Both the position numbers and the translations under genes were made by a program. Under the pieces are notes generated by a model. The model saw only the letters and a list, made by a program, of their open reading frames with translations. It was not told the origin of the DNA and searched no databases. Below are positions 602 to 7,430 of a stretch of 37,270 nt of DNA, piece after piece. The stretch spans positions 1 through 37,270 of the forward strand of contig JBHLRQ010000023.1 in NCBI GenBank assembly GCA_048882385.1, in the 5' to 3' direction. The stretch is from Candidatus Thorarchaeota archaeon (GTDB taxonomy: Archaea > Asgardarchaeota > Thorarchaeia > Thorarchaeales > Thorarchaeaceae). Numbering within the stretch: position 1 is the stretch's first letter; each line of letters starts with the position of its first letter.

Positions 602-1903
602 TTGATGATGGATATGAACAACAAAATACCTGAACGAATTCGAGAAGAGCTCCGAAAGAATCCCAAAGGTTTGACGATAACCGATATTGCAACGCGAATA
701 CAAATCAACCGAAATAGTACGGCAAGATATCTTGATGTTCTTCAGATCTCCGGACATGTTGAGATGCGAAAGGTTGGTCCTGCGAAGCTATATTTCCTGT
801 CACAAAGAGTCCCTCTTGAAGCAATGTTGAATCTCTCAGAGGATGGTATACTCACCTTCGACTCTGATTTGAAAGTGATTCGAGTAAATGACGCATTTTC
901 CAGGATCGTCTGCATCGAATCAGACGAATTGCTTGGAGCTACATTAGACCAATTGGAATTGCCCGGATTAGAAAAGGAAAGAATCACACCTCTGCTCATT
1001 GAGTCTCTGGCTGGAAAACAAATCGATTTCGAAACAACCCTGCAGAATCAAGGAAAAACAAAGCATCTCGATGTAAAACTGGTTCCAACTACTTTCGATG
1101 ATGGAAGTGCAGGATCTACAATCCTACTCGAGGATAGTACAAGACGAAAACAGTCTGAAAAGGAAATTCAACGACAACATGATTTTCTTAATCTTGTGAT
1201 GGAATCCGTCGCTCATCCATTCTATGTGATTAATGTTAAGGATTTCATAATACAGATGGCAAATAGAGCCGCACGTTTGGGATTACTCACTCATGACTCG
1301 ACTTGCTATGAACTCACTCACCGATCAAACAAACCCTGTTCAGGCGATATTCATCCATGTCCATTGAAACAAGTTGTTGAAACCAAAAAACCCGCAATAG
1401 TAGAACACGTTCACCACCAGGTGAGTGGCAGAACAAGACATGTCGAAATCCATGCACATCCCATTTTTGACAATTCTCAAAATGTTGTACAAGTAATAGA
1501 ATACAACCTGGATGTTACAGATAGAAAGCAGGTAGAAGCCGACCTGTCAGCACTACTGGACATGTATCAGCTGATAGTTGAAAACATGGAAGATGGGGTA
1601 TTTGTACTCCAGGCTGGCCGAATTGTCTATTGTAATGCATCACTTTCGAACACGCTTGGCTATGAAGTACATGAGATAACCGGAGTTGATCTATTCAGGT
1701 TAGTGAAATCTGAAGATTGGGAAAATATCACGAAAGTTGTTTCAGAAAGTGATCGGGATGGGCAGCAATCAAGAATTCATGAGTTCACAATGATTACAAA
1801 GAAGAATACTTCTGTTTCAATCCAGGCAAAGATATCATTATCTAACTATGCTAGTGAACCAGCTTTGATTTTTAATGTTCTCAAAACAGACCTAAAATCA
1901 TGA
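602..1903 (+). CDS. One-component regulator: N-terminal wHTH plus three PAS domains
   Basis: KGLTITDIATRIQINRNSTARYLDVLQISG HTH; PAS signatures (EDSTRRK, DVTDRK, ENMEDGVFVLQAGRIVYCN); middle PAS has C-x4-H-x5-C-x6-CP; no kinase domain. Confidence 0.85.
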   Translation: MMMDMNNKIPERIREELRKNPKGLTITDIATRIQINRNSTARYLDVLQISGHVEMRKVGPAKLYFLSQRVPLEAMLNLSEDGILTFDSDLKVIRVNDAFSRIVCIESDELLGATLDQLELPGLEKERITPLLIESLAGKQIDFETTLQNQGKTKHLDVKLVPTTFDDGSAGSTILLEDSTRRKQSEKEIQRQHDFLNLVMESVAHPFYVINVKDFIIQMANRAARLGLLTHDSTCYELTHRSNKPCSGDIHPCPLKQVVETKKPAIVEHVHHQVSGRTRHVEIHAHPIFDNSQNVVQVIEYNLDVTDRKQVEADLSALLDMYQLIVENMEDGVFVLQAGRIVYCNASLSNTLGYEVHEITGVDLFRLVKSEDWENITKVVSESDRDGQQSRIHEFTMITKKNTSVSIQAKISLSNYASEPALIFNVLKTDLKS

Positions 1904-2010
1904 ATCCATTTTAGAATGATATTTTTGCATCTAAATCTACACACTAACTGACCTTTGCAATGCAAAACCGCTATGCAGAACCGCGTTGCCACCATTTCTT
2001 TTTATTATTT

Positions 2011-2050
2011 AGAAAGTATATGATATTTGAAACGGATGTTGCACAACATC
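2011..2050 (+). promoter_or_regulatory. Putative BRE/TATA promoter with palindromic operator upstream of microprotein 1
   Basis: AGAAA-GTATATGA at 2011-2023, then inverted repeat GATGTTG-CA-CAACATC (2035-2050) over the expected TSS. Confidence 0.5.
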
Positions 2051-2074
2051 TAGCTCTTCAAGGAGACAAAAACA

Positions 2075-2191
2075 ATGAGTGATTGTAAATATGCGGGTGA
2101 AAAAAACGCAGCTGGTCAGATTTGGTGTAATAAAAAGAATATCTATGTGTCTGGAACAGAGAAGAATAGCTGTCCCGACTATGAACGATGA
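2075..2191 (+). CDS. Cys3 microprotein 1 (38 aa), not in ORF track
   Basis: MSDCKYAGEKNAAGQIWCNKKNIYVSGTEKNSCPDYER; SD AGGAG at 2061-2065; 25/37 identical to 2962..3081 with many synonymous changes. Confidence 0.85.
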   Translation: MSDCKYAGEKNAAGQIWCNKKNIYVSGTEKNSCPDYER

Positions 2192-2246
2192 ATCCTCTCT
2201 TGCAGGATTGTACTCAGTAGATCGGGTATTTAGAGTCATTTAATAT

Positions 2247-2290
2247 GGGGCGCGGTTCCACTAAGGAGTCCGAGTCCCTTCTCTTCAATT
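2247..2290 (+). terminator. Putative terminator hairpin after microprotein 1
   Basis: GGGGCGCGGTTCC-ACTAA-GGAGTCCGAGTCCC imperfect stem followed by a pyrimidine run TTCTCTTC. Confidence 0.4.
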
Positions 2291-2486
2291 CTTTGGAATT
2301 TTTGCCTAATTTATAATATACCTTATTTATGTATGTTATTCTAGTGAAATTATTCAATATAATCATAAGAGTCAAATCTTTTAGATATATCAAAAAGATA
2401 TATATGTGTAAAAAGTATTCTGGCTCTAAGGGTATGGTTGATCCGAAAAAACAGCGGATGAATCCAGATCCCGGGAGATATCAAAA

Positions 2487-2954
2487 ATGGATTACAAAGG
2501 TCTTTTAGACACTTCTAACGCAGTTGTCGTTGCTGTCGCAGAAGCAATGGTTAACATGGGACTCGATATCCCGCTTATCTGGACTCAGATGGCCAATGCT
2601 TTCCAAGGGAATGCAAAACCCATGTTAAGCCAATTGGGTCTGAATATCGATGGAAACGACGTGAAATCCGTTGTAGAATCTTTTGTTACCGAGATTAAGA
2701 AGTCCGGTGCTGTTCAGCGATGCAATGTTGTGAGTCTGACCGATTCAGAGCTCGTGATGGATATTGGTGAGTGCATTTTTGCACCTGCGACAGCTATCAT
2801 CCGGGGTGGCGATATGAATATGATTCCACCCTGTCCAATGATGGCTATCCTATATGCAGCTCTCAATGAAAAGACTGGTACACATTGCACTGTAACAAAG
2901 TGTCAGTTTAGACCGGACTTGAATGCTAGTGATTTCACAGTGGAACTGGGGTGA
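2487..2954 (+). CDS. V4R/methanogen-output-domain-like ligand-binding protein
   Basis: ECIFAP...PPCPMMAILYAAL...C Cys pattern and alpha/beta layout like V4R/MetOD1 domains; SD-like GGGAGA upstream. Confidence 0.55.
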   Translation: MDYKGLLDTSNAVVVAVAEAMVNMGLDIPLIWTQMANAFQGNAKPMLSQLGLNIDGNDVKSVVESFVTEIKKSGAVQRCNVVSLTDSELVMDIGECIFAPATAIIRGGDMNMIPPCPMMAILYAALNEKTGTHCTVTKCQFRPDLNASDFTVELG

Positions 2955-2961
2955 ATATAGA

Positions 2962-3081
2962 ATGGGGTCAGATTGCAAATATGCAGGTGATACCAATTCC
3001 GCAGGTCAGGTCTGGTGTGATAAGAAGAAGATCTACGTCTCTGCAAAAGAGAAGGATAGCTGTGAATTTTATGAAAAATAG
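2962..3081 (+). CDS. Cys3 microprotein 2 (39 aa), not in ORF track
   Basis: MGSDCKYAGDTNSAGQVWCDKKKIYVSAKEKDSCEFYEK; fills the gap between 2954 and the Roadblock gene, whose SD GAGGTGA overlaps its stop; paralog of 2075..2191. Confidence 0.85.
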   Translation: MGSDCKYAGDTNSAGQVWCDKKKIYVSAKEKDSCEFYEK

Positions 3082-3092
3082 AGGTGAAAGAA

Positions 3093-3455
3093 ATGAGTGC
3101 TAAAATAAAGAAACTTGAAGAAATTCTGAAGCAACTCGAGGCTGACAGTGAAGTCGATGGCTGTGCACTTGTTAGTGATAGGGGTCAGTTAATGGCTGCT
3201 GCACTACACAAGGATGTAGATGACAAGGCAGTATCTGCGATGGCAGCCGCACTTGTGTCAATTGGAAGTCGTGTGGGTTCTGCTCTTGCTTCCGGAGATC
3301 CAAAGAACATAGTGATTGAAGGAGATAAGAAGACAGTCATCGTTCGAAAAATATCGAACGCTGCAATGATTGCCACCGCTCCAAAGGATGCAAAGATTGG
3401 CTTGATTGACTTCGAGATGGATAAAGCTGCAGCATCTGTGGATTCAACGCTCTAG
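3093..3455 (+). CDS. Roadblock/LC7 domain protein (MglB-like)
   Basis: VDGCALVSDRGQLMAA...VSAMAAAL...AKIGLI Roadblock motifs; ATG at 3093 follows SD GAGGTGA (track start GTG 3084). Confidence 0.9.
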   Translation: MSAKIKKLEEILKQLEADSEVDGCALVSDRGQLMAAALHKDVDDKAVSAMAAALVSIGSRVGSALASGDPKNIVIEGDKKTVIVRKISNAAMIATAPKDAKIGLIDFEMDKAAASVDSTL

Positions 3456-3517
3456 CTTGTAGTATATCATCACGGCTTCATGAATTGGAAACAGAAGAAC
3501 TAAGGAGATTGGATAAC

Positions 3518-4183
3518 TTGTCTATACGAAAACTGAGGTCATATGACTACAAAGTCTATGTGACTGGACCCTTTCAGGCTGGAAAGACGACTCTTATTCA
3601 CACACTCGATCCCAATGCTATGTCAATTGAACGTGACATGAAAGAGGAATATCGAGGTGAGAAGAGTACAACAACAACTGGGTTTGATCTTGGGCGAGTA
3701 ATCTGGGTCAGAAAAGAAGAATCTCACATGGGTCTAATTGTACCCAAAACAGAGTATGAAAACGAGATTTCGGAATATGAAGGCTGGACAGCCAAGGAGG
3801 TTGAGCTTCGAGGCGTACCTGGCCAACTGCACTTCAAATTTGTAAGAGACACAATGAGGTCCAACACAGATGGTGTTCTTATGATTGTGGATTCTTCAGA
3901 TCCAGGAATGATTGGTGATGCCTGCGCTATACTTGCAGAAACAAAAGGTGCATTTACTGGCACCCCCATTGTTTCTATTGCTAACAAACAAGACCGAGCC
4001 GATGCTGTAGCTCCAGAAGAGGTGGGTGTTTGGTTGGGCGTTTCAGATGTAATTGGGATGTCTGCCAAGAATCGTGAGTCATCCAAGACTGCTTTAGTTC
4101 TTCTTTTGAGAATGGTTGAGGAGATTTGTCTGGCGTCTTCAACAAAAGATGAAGTCGTGGGGGTAGTTCCACAAACACAGTAA
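3518..4183 (+). CDS. MglA-like small Ras-superfamily GTPase
   Basis: G1 GPFQAGKTT, switch I TTTTGFDLG, G3-like GVPGQ, G4 NKQD, G5 SAK; TTG 3518 follows SD AAGGAG (track start 3485). Confidence 0.9.
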   Translation: MSIRKLRSYDYKVYVTGPFQAGKTTLIHTLDPNAMSIERDMKEEYRGEKSTTTTGFDLGRVIWVRKEESHMGLIVPKTEYENEISEYEGWTAKEVELRGVPGQLHFKFVRDTMRSNTDGVLMIVDSSDPGMIGDACAILAETKGAFTGTPIVSIANKQDRADAVAPEEVGVWLGVSDVIGMSAKNRESSKTALVLLLRMVEEICLASSTKDEVVGVVPQTQ

Positions 4184-4201: not shown

Positions 4202-4999
4202 ATGGAGCATGATCAAGTCGATACAAATAGTGAAAACGAACAACATGAACTAATTCCTGATCAAACAATATCTGAGAAACCAAAGAGAGTACGGAAACCT
4301 CAGACCAAAAAGGAAGTTGTGCAATTAAGATCAGAATCGTCACACACAACTATTGATGATAATTTAAGAGAATCAACTCTTGATGTGATTACGCCTGATA
4401 TATCAGAGATACAAACTGAGAATATTTCAGATTCAGAGAAGCCAACTCAACCGCCTACTGTTGAGCAGAAAAATCTAGAGGAAGAAAATACTTCAACAAT
4501 CGATAATTCACATGATTCACACGACATGGCTGGAGTTGAGGAAGCAACTTCAGAATCAAATGAAATTCCTCCGATTCAACAGATTCGTGAACTCCTTAAG
4601 GATTTTGAGATGAGAGTTTCAGTTTGGGGACTTACAGTCTTCACGGCTGATGGTTATATCCTAGCTCATCGTTTGTTTTACGATGGAATGCCTGAGAACT
4701 TGGAAATGATCGTTAGTAGTATGTCAGCTGGATTGATAACCATCTCTCAGGACTTCATCCGTCTTGTTGCATCTAATTCTTTGTTCAGACAAGTATTGGT
4801 TGATGCAGATGACGAATCAGGAAATGTTAGTTTCTCTGTATTATTGAAGCAAATTGCAGAGAATGTTATGTTGACTTGTATATTCCCGAGTAAAGCGAAG
4901 TTGGGTCTTGTTTCATTTGAAATTGAGAATCTTAGCAATGATATCAACGAGATTGTGAAACTCTGGGATGTCAAGCTTCACGAGGAAACTGTTACTTGA
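4202..4999 (+). CDS. Acidic disordered N-terminus plus C-terminal Roadblock-like domain
   Basis: About 120 aa E/S/D/T-rich region, then VWGLTVFTADGYILA...VSSMSAGL...AKLGLV Roadblock pattern. Confidence 0.75.
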   Translation: MEHDQVDTNSENEQHELIPDQTISEKPKRVRKPQTKKEVVQLRSESSHTTIDDNLRESTLDVITPDISEIQTENISDSEKPTQPPTVEQKNLEEENTSTIDNSHDSHDMAGVEEATSESNEIPPIQQIRELLKDFEMRVSVWGLTVFTADGYILAHRLFYDGMPENLEMIVSSMSAGLITISQDFIRLVASNSLFRQVLVDADDESGNVSFSVLLKQIAENVMLTCIFPSKAKLGLVSFEIENLSNDINEIVKLWDVKLHEETVT

Positions 5000-5012
5000 A
5001 GGAGATAAGAAA

Positions 5013-5432
5013 TTGAGAGAAGGAAAAACTGACAAACTTGATAGAATAATGGAAAGCTTAGTGGGTCCCGACCAGAATTTCACAAGTTGCGTAGTAACGA
5101 ATGAGAGGGGTCTTGTTGTTGCTGGAGAGTCAATCGAAGGTTTTTCCAGCCAGATATTAGCTGCGATGGTTGCTCTCATGTCAGATACTGCAATTCGTGT
5201 GAGTGAGAATCTCGGATATGGACATCCAAAGACATCATCAATCAAAGGATATGGCGTACTAATTTCAATTCAAGAGTTCATGGTGCGAGATAGATGGTTT
5301 CGAATAGGAGCGGTTTTGTCCGAAAATAAAGAGAGCAGATCGCGTTTCTTCAGAAGAGGTCTCAATCCTGAAAAAATCGAATCAAGATTAGCAGGAGCTG
5401 CGAAGAAACTTCGTTCTATTCTCGAAGATTGA
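5013..5432 (+). CDS. Roadblock/LC7-like protein
   Basis: TSCVVTNERGLVVAG...LAAMVALMSDTAIRVSENLG; TTG 5013 follows SD GAAGGAG (track start 4968 would overlap the upstream gene). Confidence 0.75.
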   Translation: MREGKTDKLDRIMESLVGPDQNFTSCVVTNERGLVVAGESIEGFSSQILAAMVALMSDTAIRVSENLGYGHPKTSSIKGYGVLISIQEFMVRDRWFRIGAVLSENKESRSRFFRRGLNPEKIESRLAGAAKKLRSILED

Positions 5433-5478: not shown

Positions 5479-6873
5479 ATGATGGGTGTCAGAAAAGAAT
5501 TCTATGGGACATATCAGGAATATATCGAATCTAAACGGGACTCACTTTATTGGAACAAGGACCAGACTATGTGCTCTTGCCTTGACTGCACATCTCGCTT
5601 TATGTTGAAGATGAACCATAATCATCGTGATGTTTCAATTGAGGAATTCGTGGAAATTATAGGACTTGATTTCATTAGCAAAGATTCTTTTCAAAAGAAT
5701 GAAGAACCAACTCTGATTAATATCGACAAGATTTACTTCTATGATAATGATTCGAATCGATATAACATAACATCAAACGTGCCAGAAGAAGAAAGGTCAA
5801 CTGTGTCTAGAATAAAAAACACAGAACCTTCTGTAGATTTTCTGATTCGTATTCTAGATTCCTTTACTTATCCCTTTTACATCATTGATGTAAGTGATTA
5901 TAAAATTAAGATGGCAAATCGTGCTGCGATGATTGAGCAGCTAGATGAAACTAGTACATGTCATTCGATAATTCACAGGAGTCCTGTTCCTTGTTGGGAG
6001 AAAGGTCAGGATTGTCCTCTAATTTATATCAAGCAGACAAAAAAACCTGTTATTCTCGAACACATGCATTTCGATGAAAATAGAGACCTTAGAGTCATAG
6101 AGGTTCATGGATACCCTGTTATTGACTCCTCTGGAGAAGTAGTTCAAATTATAAAATATGGTTTCGATGTGACAGATCAAAAATGGGTTGAAGGTCAGCT
6201 TGCGAAAGAGTCTAGAAGAGCACGATTATACCTTGACCTATTGGCACATGACATGGCGAATGAATTACAGGTTATTCAGGGGAGCGCTGAACTTGCTAAA
6301 GAAATATTGTTGATCGAAGAAGAATCAGAGCTGATACCACGTTTCGTGCATCAGATAGTTGAATCTGTAAACCGATGTATGACACTCATTGCTGAAGCTA
6401 GATCAACTGAAAATCTTCCATATGTTCCTCTCGTTGAAAGATCTCTAGCTCGAGCACTTTTAGAGTGTGTTGAAACAATAGGTGAGAAATTTACAGATTG
6501 TGTCTTTATTATTGAATGTGAGGATTCAGAAGCTGCAGTCATGGCCGACAAATACCTTGAGAATCTTCTTGCTAATATCCTTTCAAACGCAGTAAAGCAC
6601 AATCCATCTACACAGAAAAGTGTCTGGGTGCGACTTTGTCCATCGAAGGATGGTTATGATATTTCAATTTCTGATAACGGACCAGGCATTGAGGATGTGA
6701 TGAAAGAAATTCTCTTTGACCCTAAACATAGGTTTGGAGGTCTCGGAATTCATTTCTCTTTGCAGATTGTTGAGAAATACGGGGGGAAAATTACTGTTCG
6801 TGATCGAGTTCACGGAAAACCAAACGAGGGTGTTGAGTTTGTAGTATGGTTACCAAAGATTAGGAGTAGTTAG
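5479..6873 (+). CDS. Soluble PAS-domain sensor histidine kinase
   Basis: H-box LAHDMAN, N-box NAVKHN, G1 DNGPGI, G2 GGLGI; Cys3His PAS like that in 602..1903; start codon uncertain. Confidence 0.9.
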   Translation: MMGVRKEFYGTYQEYIESKRDSLYWNKDQTMCSCLDCTSRFMLKMNHNHRDVSIEEFVEIIGLDFISKDSFQKNEEPTLINIDKIYFYDNDSNRYNITSNVPEEERSTVSRIKNTEPSVDFLIRILDSFTYPFYIIDVSDYKIKMANRAAMIEQLDETSTCHSIIHRSPVPCWEKGQDCPLIYIKQTKKPVILEHMHFDENRDLRVIEVHGYPVIDSSGEVVQIIKYGFDVTDQKWVEGQLAKESRRARLYLDLLAHDMANELQVIQGSAELAKEILLIEEESELIPRFVHQIVESVNRCMTLIAEARSTENLPYVPLVERSLARALLECVETIGEKFTDCVFIIECEDSEAAVMADKYLENLLANILSNAVKHNPSTQKSVWVRLCPSKDGYDISISDNGPGIEDVMKEILFDPKHRFGGLGIHFSLQIVEKYGGKITVRDRVHGKPNEGVEFVVWLPKIRSS

Positions 6874-7430
6874 TGAATATGAAACACAAAAATGACATTC
6901 TCCCCTTTCTAAGACGTGCCCTTCTCACAGGTGTTGAACATCTAGGAATACAAAGAAGTGCAACCGAAATTCTTGTCATCCTTTATCTTGAGAAGCAGAA
7001 GAATAATCCCGCATTGTCAATAAAGGAGATAGTGGAGAAATCAAATCTATCCCTCAGTTCAGTTTCAGTTTTGTGCTCGCGGCTAGAAATAGAAGGTATA
7101 CTCATCAGACATTCCGATGATTCAAGTCTGGGACGTGGAAGAAGAAAGATACTCTATGAGTTTGCTATTGGTATAGATGGATTACTTGCACTTGGAACAA
7201 ACAAGTACATTCGGGATGTTGGACGAATATGCCGGGACATTAAACTGTATCTGAAACAGAATGAAAGCGATGATAATGTTCACAATGAATTATTATCCAG
7301 ACTAAGGAATGAGATTTGTTCTTTTTTAGAACACAGCAGAGTAGCTATTGAATCTACTACTTCAATGTTTGAAAAAGAATCGCAAGGTGAAATTGATTTG
7401 AAAGAGAAAATAGTAGAGGGTGCAATTTGA
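6873..7430 (+). CDS. Winged-HTH transcriptional regulator (GbsR/MarR-like)
   Basis: ALSIKEIVEKSNLSLSSVSVLCSRLEIEGIL...GRGRRKILY; paralog of 1..531. Confidence 0.8.
   Translation: MNMKHKNDILPFLRRALLTGVEHLGIQRSATEILVILYLEKQKNNPALSIKEIVEKSNLSLSSVSVLCSRLEIEGILIRHSDDSSLGRGRRKILYEFAIGIDGLLALGTNKYIRDVGRICRDIKLYLKQNESDDNVHNELLSRLRNEICSFLEHSRVAIESTTSMFEKESQGEIDLKEKIVEGAI

Follow-up and report, generated by a model that had tools for sequence, protein, structure and literature searches.

Two kinds of system stand out among the closest described relatives of the locus analyzed here. The first comprises the Roadblock/longin platforms (MglB–MglA, Ragulator–Rag, and TRAPP core–Rab), for which TRAPPC3-fold proteins, Roadblock proteins, and small GTPases are given as the building blocks of GTPase regulation in the sections of PMC10933270 drawn on here. 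Those sections report crystals of Thor-TRAPPC3 carrying Zn on four cysteines, and they describe no microprotein partner for Thor-TRAPPC3, TRAPPC3, or the V4R sensors. The second comprises the small subunits of glycyl radical enzymes (HPAD-gamma/HpdC, BSS-beta/-gamma, and MASS-beta/-gamma), which are HiPIP-like according to the sections of PMC13450708 used here. In HPAD-gamma, one cluster is held by three cysteines and a histidine, and cluster removal dissociates the BSS small subunits (the same sections of PMC13450708).

We analyzed a stretch of 37,270 nt from a Candidatus Thorarchaeota archaeon (assembly GCA_048882385.1, contig JBHLRQ010000023.1, positions 1 to 37,270), referred to below as the window; all features discussed lie on its forward strand. 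Coding status, family distribution, synteny, and folds were computed for two short ORFs, each with an ATG start: micro1 (2075..2191, 38 aa), a paralogue predicted to be separately transcribed, and micro2 (2962..3081, 39 aa), the operonic copy. BLASTP reproduced the identity given for this pair in a preliminary description of the DNA (25/37 identical, 31/37 positives, no gaps, E 2e-19). The spacing C-x13-C-x14-C is common to both, and a search of the window's own genome found no others.

Both ORFs are real genes under purifying selection, as had been suggested before. Nei–Gojobori estimates with seven orthologues per copy gave dN of 0.01–0.29, with dS either saturated (not computable) or 0.19–2.6. 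Omega was 0.012–0.136 among orthologues wherever it could be computed, and 0.10–0.15 between micro1 and micro2 within a genome in the two of seven genomes where this was computable. The family homologues in public records are called genes, under the name 'hypothetical protein'. That the ORFs are chance or non-coding features, such as regulatory RNA or leader sequences, might be suggested by their very small size. Against this stand the low omega with saturated dS, 71 intact copies in at least 20 genera, the Shine-Dalgarno-like sites ahead of both ORFs, and the occurrence of the same sequence as an in-frame domain of a longer protein. The reading frame is what is conserved, and this explanation is already contradicted; we give it next to no credence. 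A longer, 52-aa reading of micro2 from the ATG at 2923 was rejected: it is not conserved, and in a relative the frame is closed just upstream (open frame of 40 aa).

The three cysteines were invariant across 67 aligned family sequences (63 unique). Exactly three cysteines were present in 46 of the 63 unique members, including both window copies, whereas 13 carried a fourth, two to four residues ahead of the first (CxxC in five, CxC in seven, and CxxxC in one), so that the earlier label 'Cys3' fits most of the family and not all of it. Asp or Asn directly preceded the first cysteine in 61 of the 63. Pfam searches yielded no family for the two window ORFs, and at E ≤ 10 none for 31 members either, with three single chance-level rows as the sole output; NCBIfam likewise held no family. 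No characterized family with an unrelated function was thus matched in these two libraries. The PF01355 (HiPIP) HMM, run at E ≤ 10 against the window's own genome, matched nothing, and PDB sequence-profile searches with the microprotein returned chance-level GH18 rows only. With Pfam, this HMM, and the PDB profiles, no sequence similarity to any HiPIP or glycyl radical small subunit was found. A search of the ESM Atlas returned unnamed clusters only, plus a 0.84 match to a viral DUF6472 cluster. Literature searches found no earlier description of the microprotein and nothing on HiPIPs in Asgard archaea; PMC10933270, in the sections drawn on here, treats the neighboring proteins, and its 'TRAPPC3-like' set might include the 155-aa family described below.

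micro2 lies in an operon with a conserved gene order (TRAPPC3-like, microprotein, Roadblock, Arf-like GTPase, Roadblock-like) that recurs in 20 or more genera of the phylum sample. In the window, the first of these genes (2487..2954) encodes a 155-aa protein with a TRAPPC3/Bet3/V4R fold, the predicted partner of the microprotein. Upstream of it, the element TTTTAGATATATCAAAAAGATATATAT (2379..2405) was almost unchanged in all seven aligned Thor-type loci and is a candidate for the operon promoter. The stop of the 155-aa gene (2954) and the ATG of micro2 (2962) are only 7 nt apart, and the Roadblock ATG (3093) follows the micro2 stop (3081) after 11 nt, so micro2 is indeed packed between the V4R-like and Roadblock genes as the preliminary description had it. 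The Roadblock/LC7 protein (3093..3455) was identified by Pfam Robl_LC7 (2.5e-12) and by the PDB Roadblock chains 9jue, 7f8m, and 7yh1. It is followed by a small GTPase (3485..4183) that is weakly Arf/Arl-like (Pfam Arf 3.5e-7; PDB Arf/Arl chains at E 5e-5 to 5e-4) and scored under the cut-off of TIGR00231. The next gene (4202..4999) encodes a 265-aa protein with a low-complexity N-terminal part and no Pfam match; in tblastn, its C-terminal residues 125–260 landed on the Roadblock genes of relatives. A second Roadblock-like protein (4968..5432) matched Robl_LC7 below the cut-off (E 0.014) and is syntenic in relatives. The cluster is flanked on one side by an HTH and triple-PAS sensor/regulator (602..1903; Pfam PAS_4 6e-28 and HTH matches), homologues of which also flank the cluster in relatives. 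On the other side lie a PAS histidine kinase (5479..6873; Pfam HATPase_c 3.5e-16) and a MarR-type winged-helix regulator (6873..7430; Pfam MarR_2 3.7e-6) that is syntenic in relatives. A motif scan showed that the sensor/regulator and the kinase share a C-x4-H-x5-C-x6-CP motif, at about 1304 and 5959, respectively. The operon shares its building blocks with the Roadblock/longin platforms: a TRAPPC3-fold protein, two to three proteins of Roadblock type, and a small GTPase. It differs from them in that no longin subunit was identified in it, and any GEF or GAP activity would be putative. To our knowledge, the predicted metal-cluster microprotein and its HEAT-GNAT fusion have no counterpart in those platforms.

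The search of other genomes proposed in the preliminary description yielded intact homologues at 71 places in 40 of the 400 Asgard phylum genomes, representing at least 20 genera. The spread was patchy, with just four of the 27 other genomes of the window's genus carrying the family, and the family is confined almost entirely to Asgard archaea. Forty-seven of the 71 places lay directly 3' of a 155-aa TRAPPC3-like homologue. Seven were extra copies 300–400 nt upstream of a 155-aa homologue with their own promoter-like element, like micro1; 15 were C-terminal domains of HEAT-GNAT proteins inside the same clusters; and two formed a tandem solitary pair (G391:C49) away from any TRAPPC3-like gene. 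Conversely, 50 places carried a match to the 155-aa family at E ≤ 1e-24, and the microprotein adjoined 47 of them. The three places without it were one cut by a contig end and two divergent paralogues that had neither the microprotein nor Roadblock/GTPase genes. A Roadblock gene came next after the microprotein at 43 of the 47 operonic places, which bears out the earlier link to a V4R-like/Roadblock/GTPase cluster. Because adjacency to the TRAPPC3-like gene persists at the four places that have no adjoining Roadblock gene, gene order indicates that the V4R/TRAPPC3-like gene, not the GTPase gene, is the conserved partner.

All seven matches to longer proteins with a fusion partner were HEAT-GNAT forms, and among the longer-protein matches no fusion to the TRAPPC3-like protein was seen. 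A 528-aa frame in G212:C47 that had been considered such a fusion proved to be a TRAPPC3-like protein lengthened at its N-terminus by a coiled coil; behind it lies a decayed microprotein gene. At the places examined, the neighbors were TRAPPC3-like, Roadblock, GTPase, PAS, and kinase genes; no glycyl radical enzyme gene stood beside the microprotein there, and no redox enzymes were seen among the neighbors in the window and the relatives' loci.

These counts bear on two other explanations. HiPIPs are soluble electron carriers, and the microprotein could be a free-standing small electron carrier or thiol peptide that is merely co-transcribed and not a subunit. The tandem solitary copies, with no TRAPPC3-like gene beside them, would suit such a role, whereas the position of 47 of the 56 stand-alone copies directly after a TRAPPC3-like gene and the lack of redox enzymes among the neighbors speak against it. 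The conserved surface residues, moreover, coincide with the predicted interface described below, and we consider a free carrier very unlikely. Alternatively, the microprotein may be chiefly a docking tag that brings other proteins into the complex of the cluster, with its partner surface on the Roadblock protein, the GTPase, or the HEAT-GNAT protein and not on the TRAPPC3-like protein. The HEAT-GNAT fusions and the Roadblock genes that so often come next could be read in this way. The adjacency to the TRAPPC3-like gene at places without a following Roadblock gene, and the co-folding with the TRAPPC3-like protein (the sole partner run), which passed its controls, weigh against this second alternative, which we consider improbable.

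Between the sensor/regulator gene and micro1, several elements suggest a unit of its own. A palindrome, TGCAATGCA (1956..1964), lies upstream of the putative promoter, and TGCA(A/T)TGC was kept in six of the six relatives with sequence there (the G021 locus ends before it). A BRE/TATA-like element, TTGCCACCATTTCTTTTTATTATT (1986..2009), was recognized by its conservation: the consensus TGCCAC(A/C)ATTT(C/G)(T/C)TTTTAT(T/A)AT was kept in G000, G013, G002, G363, G378, and G391, and an element of this type also precedes both tandem solitary copies (L059). In the window's own genome, it was unique at up to four mismatches. We infer that it acts as the promoter of micro1. The palindrome GATGTTGCACAACATC (2035..2050), between the TATA-like element and the micro1 start, had been proposed as an operator; it is present, and its arms are kept in four genomes of genus g1 but nowhere beyond the genus. 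Folded as RNA, it was no stronger than shuffled sequences (z −1.32). A Shine-Dalgarno-like AGGAG, read from the sequence, lies at 2061..2065, 9 nt before the micro1 ATG. Downstream, a GC-rich hairpin (2247–2278) followed by a T-rich tract (2247..2300 in all) forms a terminator-like end to the unit; the hairpin had an MFE of −20.3 kcal/mol (z −2.87), and equally stable folds occurred in three of 200 shuffles. This region of G013 contains similar sequence; the GC-rich inverted repeat of G021 is a different one. A scan for sigma-70 promoters and intrinsic terminators, which is not suited to archaea, returned approximately the number of sites expected by chance. The conserved promoter-like element and the terminator-like hairpin support the prediction that micro1 is a separate transcription unit. 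The earlier claim that micro1 looks monocistronic stands as regards the TATA-like element, the AGGAG, and a terminator-like hairpin, but not as regards a hairpin directly after its stop codon, which was no better than shuffles (z 0.26). On the tree, micro1, the other upstream copies, and the tandem copies formed one group (1 change; support 90/76).

The fold of the 155-aa protein was assessed on an AF2 model (pLDDT 93.6). Foldseek matched the model to TRAPPC3 (6aq3) at E 1.4e-4. VIA gave TRAPPC3/Bet3 6aq3_A (Z 11.1, 148 aligned), Thor-TRAPPC3 7yh3_D (Z 10.7), and PoxR/MopR at about Z 9.4 (PoxR 5fru_A, Z 9.4). The modelled protein has the TRAPPC3/Bet3/V4R two-layer alpha/beta fold, which it shares with eukaryotic TRAPPC3 (Bet3) and the bacterial V4R sensors PoxR, MopR, and DmpR (Z 9–11). 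At the sequence level, Pfam V4R or TRAPP Bet3 was not matched at E ≤ 1 (one chance-level match only), a PDB profile search gave no V4R/Bet3 match, and identity to the solved Thor-TRAPPC3 structure was only 10–11%. G25, C96, P114, C116, and N146 were invariant in 31 sequences of the family. C76 or C79 was present in 26 of the 31; C134, C139, and C148 varied; and three members had only C76, C96, and C116. Like Thor-TRAPPC3 and PoxR, the 155-aa protein carries cysteines both on the sheet and where helix D begins, the positions at which the sections of PMC10933270 drawn on here place the Zn site of those two proteins. In them, a Zn site with four ligands links sheet and helix D; in the 155-aa family, two cysteines are invariant.

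Co-folding of micro2 with the 155-aa protein, which had been proposed as a check, gave an ipSAE of 0.64 (runs 0.64, 0.66, and 0.61) versus 0.02 for the best control. The runs agreed in at least 94% of contacts, with a partner pLDDT of at least 83. Of the pairs used for calibration, 58 of 80 solved complexes and two of 110 mismatched pairs attained this mark; the calibration is only rough here, as our own alignments and riding ligands were used. The predicted interface contains the invariant C96 and N146 and the near-invariant G74 and Q77 on the 155-aa side, and the near-invariant N12, W18, K22, Y25, and V26 on the microprotein side. The model makes it quite likely that the microprotein binds the TRAPPC3-like protein. 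The cysteines and the N-terminus of the microprotein are outside the named interface residues. Partners without C76/C79 were paired with four-cysteine microproteins in four of five cases, and partners with C76/C79 in two of 26, the rows being related lineages. A fourth cluster ligand might accordingly come from the partner's C76/C79; we treat this as a lead only, because the rows are related lineages and the microprotein N-terminus is outside the named interface.

The microprotein model (pLDDT 88.3) was compared with 48,161 chains, of which nine reached Z ≥ 2. All eight of the matches listed were HiPIP-type [4Fe-4S] modules, with Z of 2.1–4.2 over 35–38 residues, values that are weak and far below what the comparison tool rates as trustworthy; a 39-residue three-strand unit is, moreover, a simple shape. 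The best match, also the top match in Foldseek, was the HPAD small subunit 2y8n_B (Z 4.2, rmsd 1.8, 37 aligned), followed by the MASS small subunit 9o8u_F (Z 2.7) and BSS beta (4pkf_B and 9pzj_E, Z 2.3). Four HiPIPs (8z82_a, 3h31_A, 1isu_B, and 1pih) matched over 35 residues at Z 2.1–2.4, in their cluster-binding C-terminal halves. The glycyl radical enzyme small subunits are thus the best and almost the sole structural matches, and they are likewise very small, cysteine-bearing, and attached to a larger partner. In HPAD-gamma, three cysteines and a non-cysteine ligand hold one cluster. There are differences as well. Most microproteins have just three cysteines, and their cofactor is a predicted one. 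The partner of the glycyl radical subunits is a glycyl radical enzyme, whereas that of the microprotein would be a TRAPPC3/V4R-fold protein in a GTPase operon, and the matched glycyl radical and HiPIP chains have 51–86 residues, whereas the microprotein is shorter. Compared with HiPIPs, the microprotein lacks the N-terminal half, the first ligand cysteine (in 46 of 63 members), and any link to photosynthetic or respiratory electron transfer. Canonical HiPIPs use four cysteine ligands arranged as CxxC...C...C, which the window copies, with three cysteines, do not show; the CxxC-x13-C-x14-C form of five of the 63 members is one that we take to resemble the HiPIP ligand pattern.

Short cysteine-rich proteins most often bind Zn, and the microprotein may instead be a structural Zn mini-domain, with three cysteines plus an Asp, water, or partner ligand (four cysteines in some members), that serves as an architectural adaptor on the TRAPPC3-like protein with no redox or Fe-S function. 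The low Z of the HiPIP-type matches leaves room for this, the synteny and co-folding fit it equally well, and the Asp or Asn before the first cysteine could help to ligate a metal. The Thor-TRAPPC3 fold itself, moreover, is a Zn binder (sections of PMC10933270 drawn on here). On the other side, no CxxC or CxxH knuckle is present in the window copies or in 46 of the 63 unique members, and no zinc ribbon, treble clef, or rubredoxin was found at Z ≥ 2 among the 48,161 chains, whereas every listed match was a cubane Fe-S module. Cysteines spaced singly, 13–14 residues apart and without a CxxC knuckle, are unlike typical Zn fingers. We consider a purely structural Zn domain rather unlikely, though the most serious of the alternatives. 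The preliminary description had proposed a metal, Fe-S, or thiol-switch micro-subunit that a second copy could titrate, and this is partly sustained: all the tests run came out in its favor, in that the fold comparison favors a metal-cluster module and the co-folding supports binding to the 155-aa protein. The thiol switch and the titration by micro1 are conjectures of that description. That the microprotein binds a metal centre is very probable; that this centre is Fe-S rather than Zn we hold with little better than even confidence.

Taken together, the microprotein is probably a minimal HiPIP-like accessory subunit of the TRAPPC3-like/Roadblock/Arf-like GTPase module, with a cofactor that is probably Fe-S and possibly Zn. 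The fuller proposal is that micro2 is an Fe-S subunit docked on the TRAPPC3-like protein that affects the Roadblock/Arf-like GTPase platform, with micro1 as an exchangeable isoform; as a whole, this is plausible at somewhat less than even confidence. micro2 would be produced together with the upstream TRAPPC3/V4R-fold protein and would dock by a conserved strand face (N12, W18, K22, and I24–V26). On the 155-aa protein, this face would meet a surface made up of the N-terminal helix, G74 and Q77 where strand 1 begins, E95-C96-I97 where strand 2 ends, and N146. C5, C19, and C34, amid conserved aromatic residues, are the predicted ligands of a cubane Fe-S cluster, which may be a [4Fe-4S] cluster with an open or non-cysteine fourth site or a [3Fe-4S] cluster; the CxxC and CxC relatives would supply all four cysteines. 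Folding and attachment of the subunit would depend on the cluster, as in the HiPIP-like small subunits of glycyl radical enzymes, and loss or oxidation of the cluster would alter the TRAPPC3-like/Roadblock platform by which the Arf-like GTPase is regulated. micro1 would be an older paralogue with its own promoter; 10 of the 13 residues in the predicted interface are retained in it, so that it could take the same site under separate regulation. The computations establish coding status, family distribution, synteny, folds, and a co-folding pass; from them we infer that the two proteins bind each other in the cell, that the cofactor is Fe-S, that the subunit has a role in sensing, and that the isoforms exchange.

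A more far-reaching version of the proposal makes the microprotein a cluster-bearing switch that two proteins share. In this version, the interface with the TRAPPC3-like protein would complete or sense an open, three-cysteine Fe-S site, redox or Fe-S status would gate a TRAPP-like regulator of the Arf-like GTPase, and micro1 would swap in as another switch subunit. In Loki-type clusters, the same domain would anchor a HEAT-GNAT (RimI/Nat-like) acetyltransferase on the complex, prefiguring in a prokaryote the acylation-dependent control of Arf/Arl GTPases. We offer this as a long shot.

Asgard homologues of TRAPP, Roadblock/longin, and small-GTPase proteins are central to the debate on the origin of eukaryotic membrane trafficking. 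In MK-D1, such genes are generally outside operons and their pairing is hard to predict (sections of PMC10933270 drawn on here). The conserved operon provides four to six defined proteins for reconstitution. The microprotein is a component that escapes domain-based surveys, being approximately 40 residues in length and without a matching family model. If the Fe-S assignment is true, we would know of no smaller HiPIP-like module, and it would be the first link of a metal cluster to a TRAPP-like GTPase regulator. If the metal is Zn, an Asgard TRAPPC3-fold protein would still gain a new, obligate small subunit.

The two microprotein ORFs lie on the forward strand at 2075–2191 (copy 1, 38 aa) and 2962–3081 (copy 2, 39 aa), as the preliminary description had placed them, each with an ATG start and a preceding Shine–Dalgarno-like purine run. 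They are paralogues that align without gaps (25/37 identical, E 2e-19) and share the spacing C-x13-C-x14-C. Copy 2 is tightly packed, with the stop codon of a 155-aa gene (2487–2954, forward) 7 nt upstream and the ATG of a Roadblock gene (3093–3455, forward) 11 nt downstream. Copy 1 is solitary, and the 155-aa gene begins 295 nt downstream of it. The window's own genome (3.7 Mb, 256 contigs, 95% complete) yielded no third copy. A longer, 52-aa reading from a start at 2923 was rejected, as this start was not conserved.

Intact homologues were present in 11 of 61 related genomes, and a profile search yielded 71 matches in 40 of the 400 genomes sampled from the phylum (Asgard archaea). The proposed purifying selection was borne out by omega values of 0.012–0.136 wherever computable among seven orthologues of each copy (dN 0.01–0.29, synonymous sites mostly saturated); between paralogues within one genome, omega was 0.10–0.15, computable in two of seven genomes. 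The three Cys were invariant in all 67 aligned sequences, and A8, G9, G15, W18, K21, Y25, V26 and Y37 were at least 90% conserved. Judged by these patterns of sequence conservation, both ORFs are genes. The designation Cys3 holds for 46 of 63 unique members, which have three Cys alone, but not for the other 17: in 13 an additional Cys lies two, three or four residues N-terminal of the first (7 CxC, 5 CxxC, 1 CxxxC), and in four it lies elsewhere. The residue preceding the first Cys was Asp in 53 and Asn in eight of the 63.

A match to an already characterised family was sought in several libraries and none was found: Pfam held no family for the two ORFs of the window, nor for 31 members at E ≤ 10, and NCBIfam, PDB sequence profiles and the ESM Atlas held none for the microprotein. 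HMMER over 1.84 billion cluster representatives returned only 20 matches (E ≤ 0.001). None of the 37 matches from a word-indexed search had a recorded Pfam domain, and those with names were 'hypothetical protein' of Thorarchaeota, Promethearchaeota, Freyarchaeota or Asgardarchaeia. A further scan, with a single genome for each prokaryotic species, found 26 loci, whose record titles named Asgard lineages (22), 'archaeon' or 'uncultured archaeon' (three) and Candidatus Coatesbacteria (one, L105). In the last, a record with a 2.6-Mb chromosome, an intact microprotein gene adjoins Roadblock and TRAPPC3-like genes at 2050–3111 of the locus, at 53% G+C. The SSU rRNA of that genome scored 784 bits against the bacterial model versus 488 against the archaeal model, and the cluster may have been transferred from Asgard archaea, or the record may be chimeric or mis-binned.

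All 71 places in the phylum sample were retrieved and sorted by neighbourhood. In 43 the microprotein gene was flanked by a homologue of the 155-aa gene on one side and by Roadblock on the other; in four it followed such a homologue with no adjoining Roadblock gene. Seven were extra copies preceding the 155-aa gene by 300–400 nt (the arrangement of the window), 15 were C-terminal domains of longer proteins, and two formed a tandem pair elsewhere (G391:C49). One of the 43 (G212:C47) is a decayed copy, its frame broken behind the second Cys. This cluster (L076, 421–2140) is a second, paralogous one, an intact cluster being present elsewhere in that genome; its TRAPPC3-like protein carries a ~370-aa coiled-coil-like N-terminal extension and is followed by the broken microprotein gene, and its Roadblock match begins only at residue 19. 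Conversely, the 155-aa family was present in 59 of 400 genomes (E ≤ 1e-5), and at E ≤ 1e-24 the microprotein lay directly downstream in 47 of 50 places, a contig end cutting one more. The remaining two (L083, 3252–3662, G035:C1; L084, 3476–3919, G371:C37) are divergent paralogues (28–32% identity) with no microprotein, Roadblock or GTPase neighbours. By these adjacency counts in both directions, the tightest and most persistent link of the microprotein is to the 155-aa gene.

No Pfam match and no PDB sequence relative was found for the 155-aa protein. Its AlphaFold2 model (31-sequence alignment, pLDDT 93.6) matched TRAPPC3/Bet3 (6aq3_A, Z 11.1, 148 residues aligned), yeast TRAPP core chains (Z ~11), the solved Thorarchaeota TRAPPC3 (7yh3_D, Z 10.7; 7yh2_A, Z 10.4) and the V4R sensor domains of PoxR and MopR (Z ~9.4). 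As a description of the fold, the earlier label 'V4R-like' is correct. In sequence, only 10–11% of residues are identical to the solved Thor-TRAPPC3, so that the 155-aa protein belongs to a separate family.

We co-folded the 155-aa protein (31-row alignment) with copy 2 (31 rows, same locus order), including one 4Fe-4S cluster and one Zn as ligands. The score was 0.64 (runs 0.64, 0.66 and 0.61) versus 0.02 for the best control, with at least 94% contact agreement between runs and a partner pLDDT of at least 83. A value of 0.64 was attained by 58 of 80 solved complexes and two of 110 mismatched pairs, counts that are only a rough guide here, given the custom alignments and ligands. No comparable solved complex is known to us, and a pass through memorised structures therefore seems unlikely. 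The model thus supports, rather than demonstrates, binding of the microprotein to the 155-aa protein. The predicted interface comprises residues 3–4, 7, 74, 77, 95–97, 99–100, 103–104 and 143–146 of the 155-aa protein, with C96 and N146 invariant and G74 and Q77 near-invariant, and residues 12–14, 16, 18, 22–27 and 29–30 of the microprotein, with N12, W18, K22, Y25 and V26 near-invariant. Copy 1 keeps 10 of 13 interface residues of copy 2 versus 15 of 24 other aligned positions, compatible with its occupying the same predicted site.

The AlphaFold2 model of the microprotein itself (67-sequence alignment, pLDDT 88.3) has three short strands. Foldseek gave no significant match with it; the top row was 2y8n_B, the small subunit of 4-hydroxyphenylacetate decarboxylase (HPAD; E 2.7, TM 0.65). 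An independent structure search of 48,161 chains gave only nine with Z ≥ 2, and all eight entries listed at that level were HiPIP-type cubane-cluster modules: 2y8n_B (Z 4.2, rmsd 1.8 Å, 37 residues, chain 46–85), the MASS small subunit 9o8u_F (Z 2.7), BSS beta 4pkf_B and 9pzj_E (Z 2.3) and four HiPIPs (Z 2.1–2.4), values that are low in absolute terms and below the trusted range of the tool. They carry weight because nothing else in the bank matched and they represent one fold class. The CxxC-x13-C-x14-C form of some relatives presumably resembles the HiPIP ligand pattern. According to PMC13450708 (a review) and PMC12358834 (the MASS structure), small subunits of glycyl radical enzymes have HiPIP-like folds with [4Fe-4S] clusters, HPAD-gamma holding one four-Cys cluster and one three-Cys-plus-His cluster, and the role of these clusters is still unclear.

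The best-supported reading is that the microprotein would serve the TRAPPC3-fold protein as an obligate small subunit and carry a metal centre on its own three invariant Cys. We lean towards a cubane Fe-S cluster over zinc, since the sole structural relatives are HiPIP-type modules, most members have no CxxC knuckle, and the Cys are surrounded by conserved aromatics. Either a [3Fe-4S] cluster or a [4Fe-4S] cluster with a non-Cys or partner-supplied fourth ligand would be compatible with three Cys. Against this, no sequence similarity to any Fe-S family was found, the fold Z scores are low, three-Cys sites are non-canonical, and the related TRAPPC3 fold binds Zn: in Thor-TRAPPC3, Zn on four Cys ties the sheet to helix D (Tran et al., PMC10933270). 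Zinc on the microprotein's Cys is plausible, though less likely. Among 31 sequences of the 155-aa family, all have C96 and C116, 26 have Cys76 or Cys79, and further Cys are variable. Across these 31 loci, of related lineages, a four-Cys microprotein accompanied four of the five partners with neither Cys76 nor Cys79 and two of the 26 with one, a sequence-level lead towards a shared or compensating ligand.

Copy 1 had been described as a unit of its own, and conservation upstream and a downstream hairpin agree with this. The element TTGCCACCATTTCTTTTTATTATT (1986–2009) is near-unchanged across four genera (six genomes) and has a palindrome, TGCA(A/T)TGC, ~25 nt further upstream. This element also precedes both solitary tandem copies in G391, and the window's own genome has it only once. 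The palindrome at 2035–2050, earlier called an operator, is conserved, but only within the genus. A hairpin directly after the stop codon folded no better than shuffles; a GC-rich hairpin with a T-rich tail at 2247–2300 did fold better than shuffles (z −2.87). The 155-aa gene has its own upstream element at 2379–2405, TTTTAGATATATCAAAAAGATATATAT, which contains the palindrome GATATATC, is conserved in seven of seven aligned Thor-type loci, and is a candidate operon promoter or operator. These sequence features make it very likely that the extra copy is transcribed as a unit of its own. A tree of 32 copies (38 columns, with most other forks lacking resolution) groups all nine upstream or tandem copies together (one change, support 90/76; 90% of bootstrap trees), which makes the duplication an old one in this archaeal family. 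The two solitary tandem copies of copy-1 type in G391 (L059, 4250–4900, G391:C49) are each preceded by that promoter-like element together with a GGAGGTGA site; they lack an in-frame ATG, and the start would be CTG, or GTG inside the Shine–Dalgarno-like site.

All 15 fusions (L052 8217–8810, L053 4472–5065, L054 8876–9472 and 12 further places; ~230–510 aa, in one family of the phylum) contain a GNAT domain, often with HEAT repeats N-terminal of it. The closest NCBIfam model for the GNAT part was RimI (N-terminal acetyltransferase type), at 29 bits far below the 86-bit cut-off. They sit in the same clusters on a divergent arm (GTPase, Roadblock-like, HEAT-GNAT-micro), the opposite arm encoding TRAPPC3-like, micro and Roadblock. 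The fusions suggest that the microprotein domain serves to dock proteins onto the same complex.

The usual order downstream of the microprotein is Roadblock, small GTPase and one or two Roadblock-like proteins. In the window, the first ~120 residues of a 265-aa protein (4202–4999) are acidic, of low complexity and poorly conserved, and residues 125–260 cross-match Roadblock genes of relatives (tblastn), which brings the Roadblock-type proteins of the operon to three. For MK-D1, by contrast, small-GTPase genes are reported to lie mostly outside operons with Roadblock, longin or TRAPPC3 genes (PMC10933270). PAS sensors, a PAS histidine kinase and a MarR-type regulator frequently flank the clusters. 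The flanking PAS sensors carry a conserved Cys/His motif, C-x4-H-x5-C-x6-7-C-P (e.g., TCYELTHRSNKPCSGDIHPCP), located by motif scan at 1304–1390 and 5959–6050 (forward) of the window. It was present in 16 of 36 larger loci scanned, Thor-type and Loki-type alike (L016, L017, L020, L021, L052–L055, L066–L068, L077–L081), and seven times in the window's whole genome, twice at this cluster. It may be a metal or redox site of the cluster's own sensors.

By analogy with the glycyl-radical small subunits, an Fe-S cluster on the microprotein may mainly keep the subunit in shape and place. Attachment could thereby be sensitive to oxidants or iron status, and this sensitivity might feed into the Roadblock/GTPase switch. 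A search of the literature on Asgard TRAPPC3/V4R, Roadblock, GTPase and HiPIP found no description of the microprotein, and the accessible text of PMC10933270, which deals with the neighbouring proteins, contains no mention of it. Both the fold class and the concept of a tiny cluster-bearing accessory subunit are already known; no precedent is known for the microprotein family, its partner or its position within a GTPase operon of Asgard archaea, which makes it of considerable interest to the study of trafficking-like modules in these archaea.
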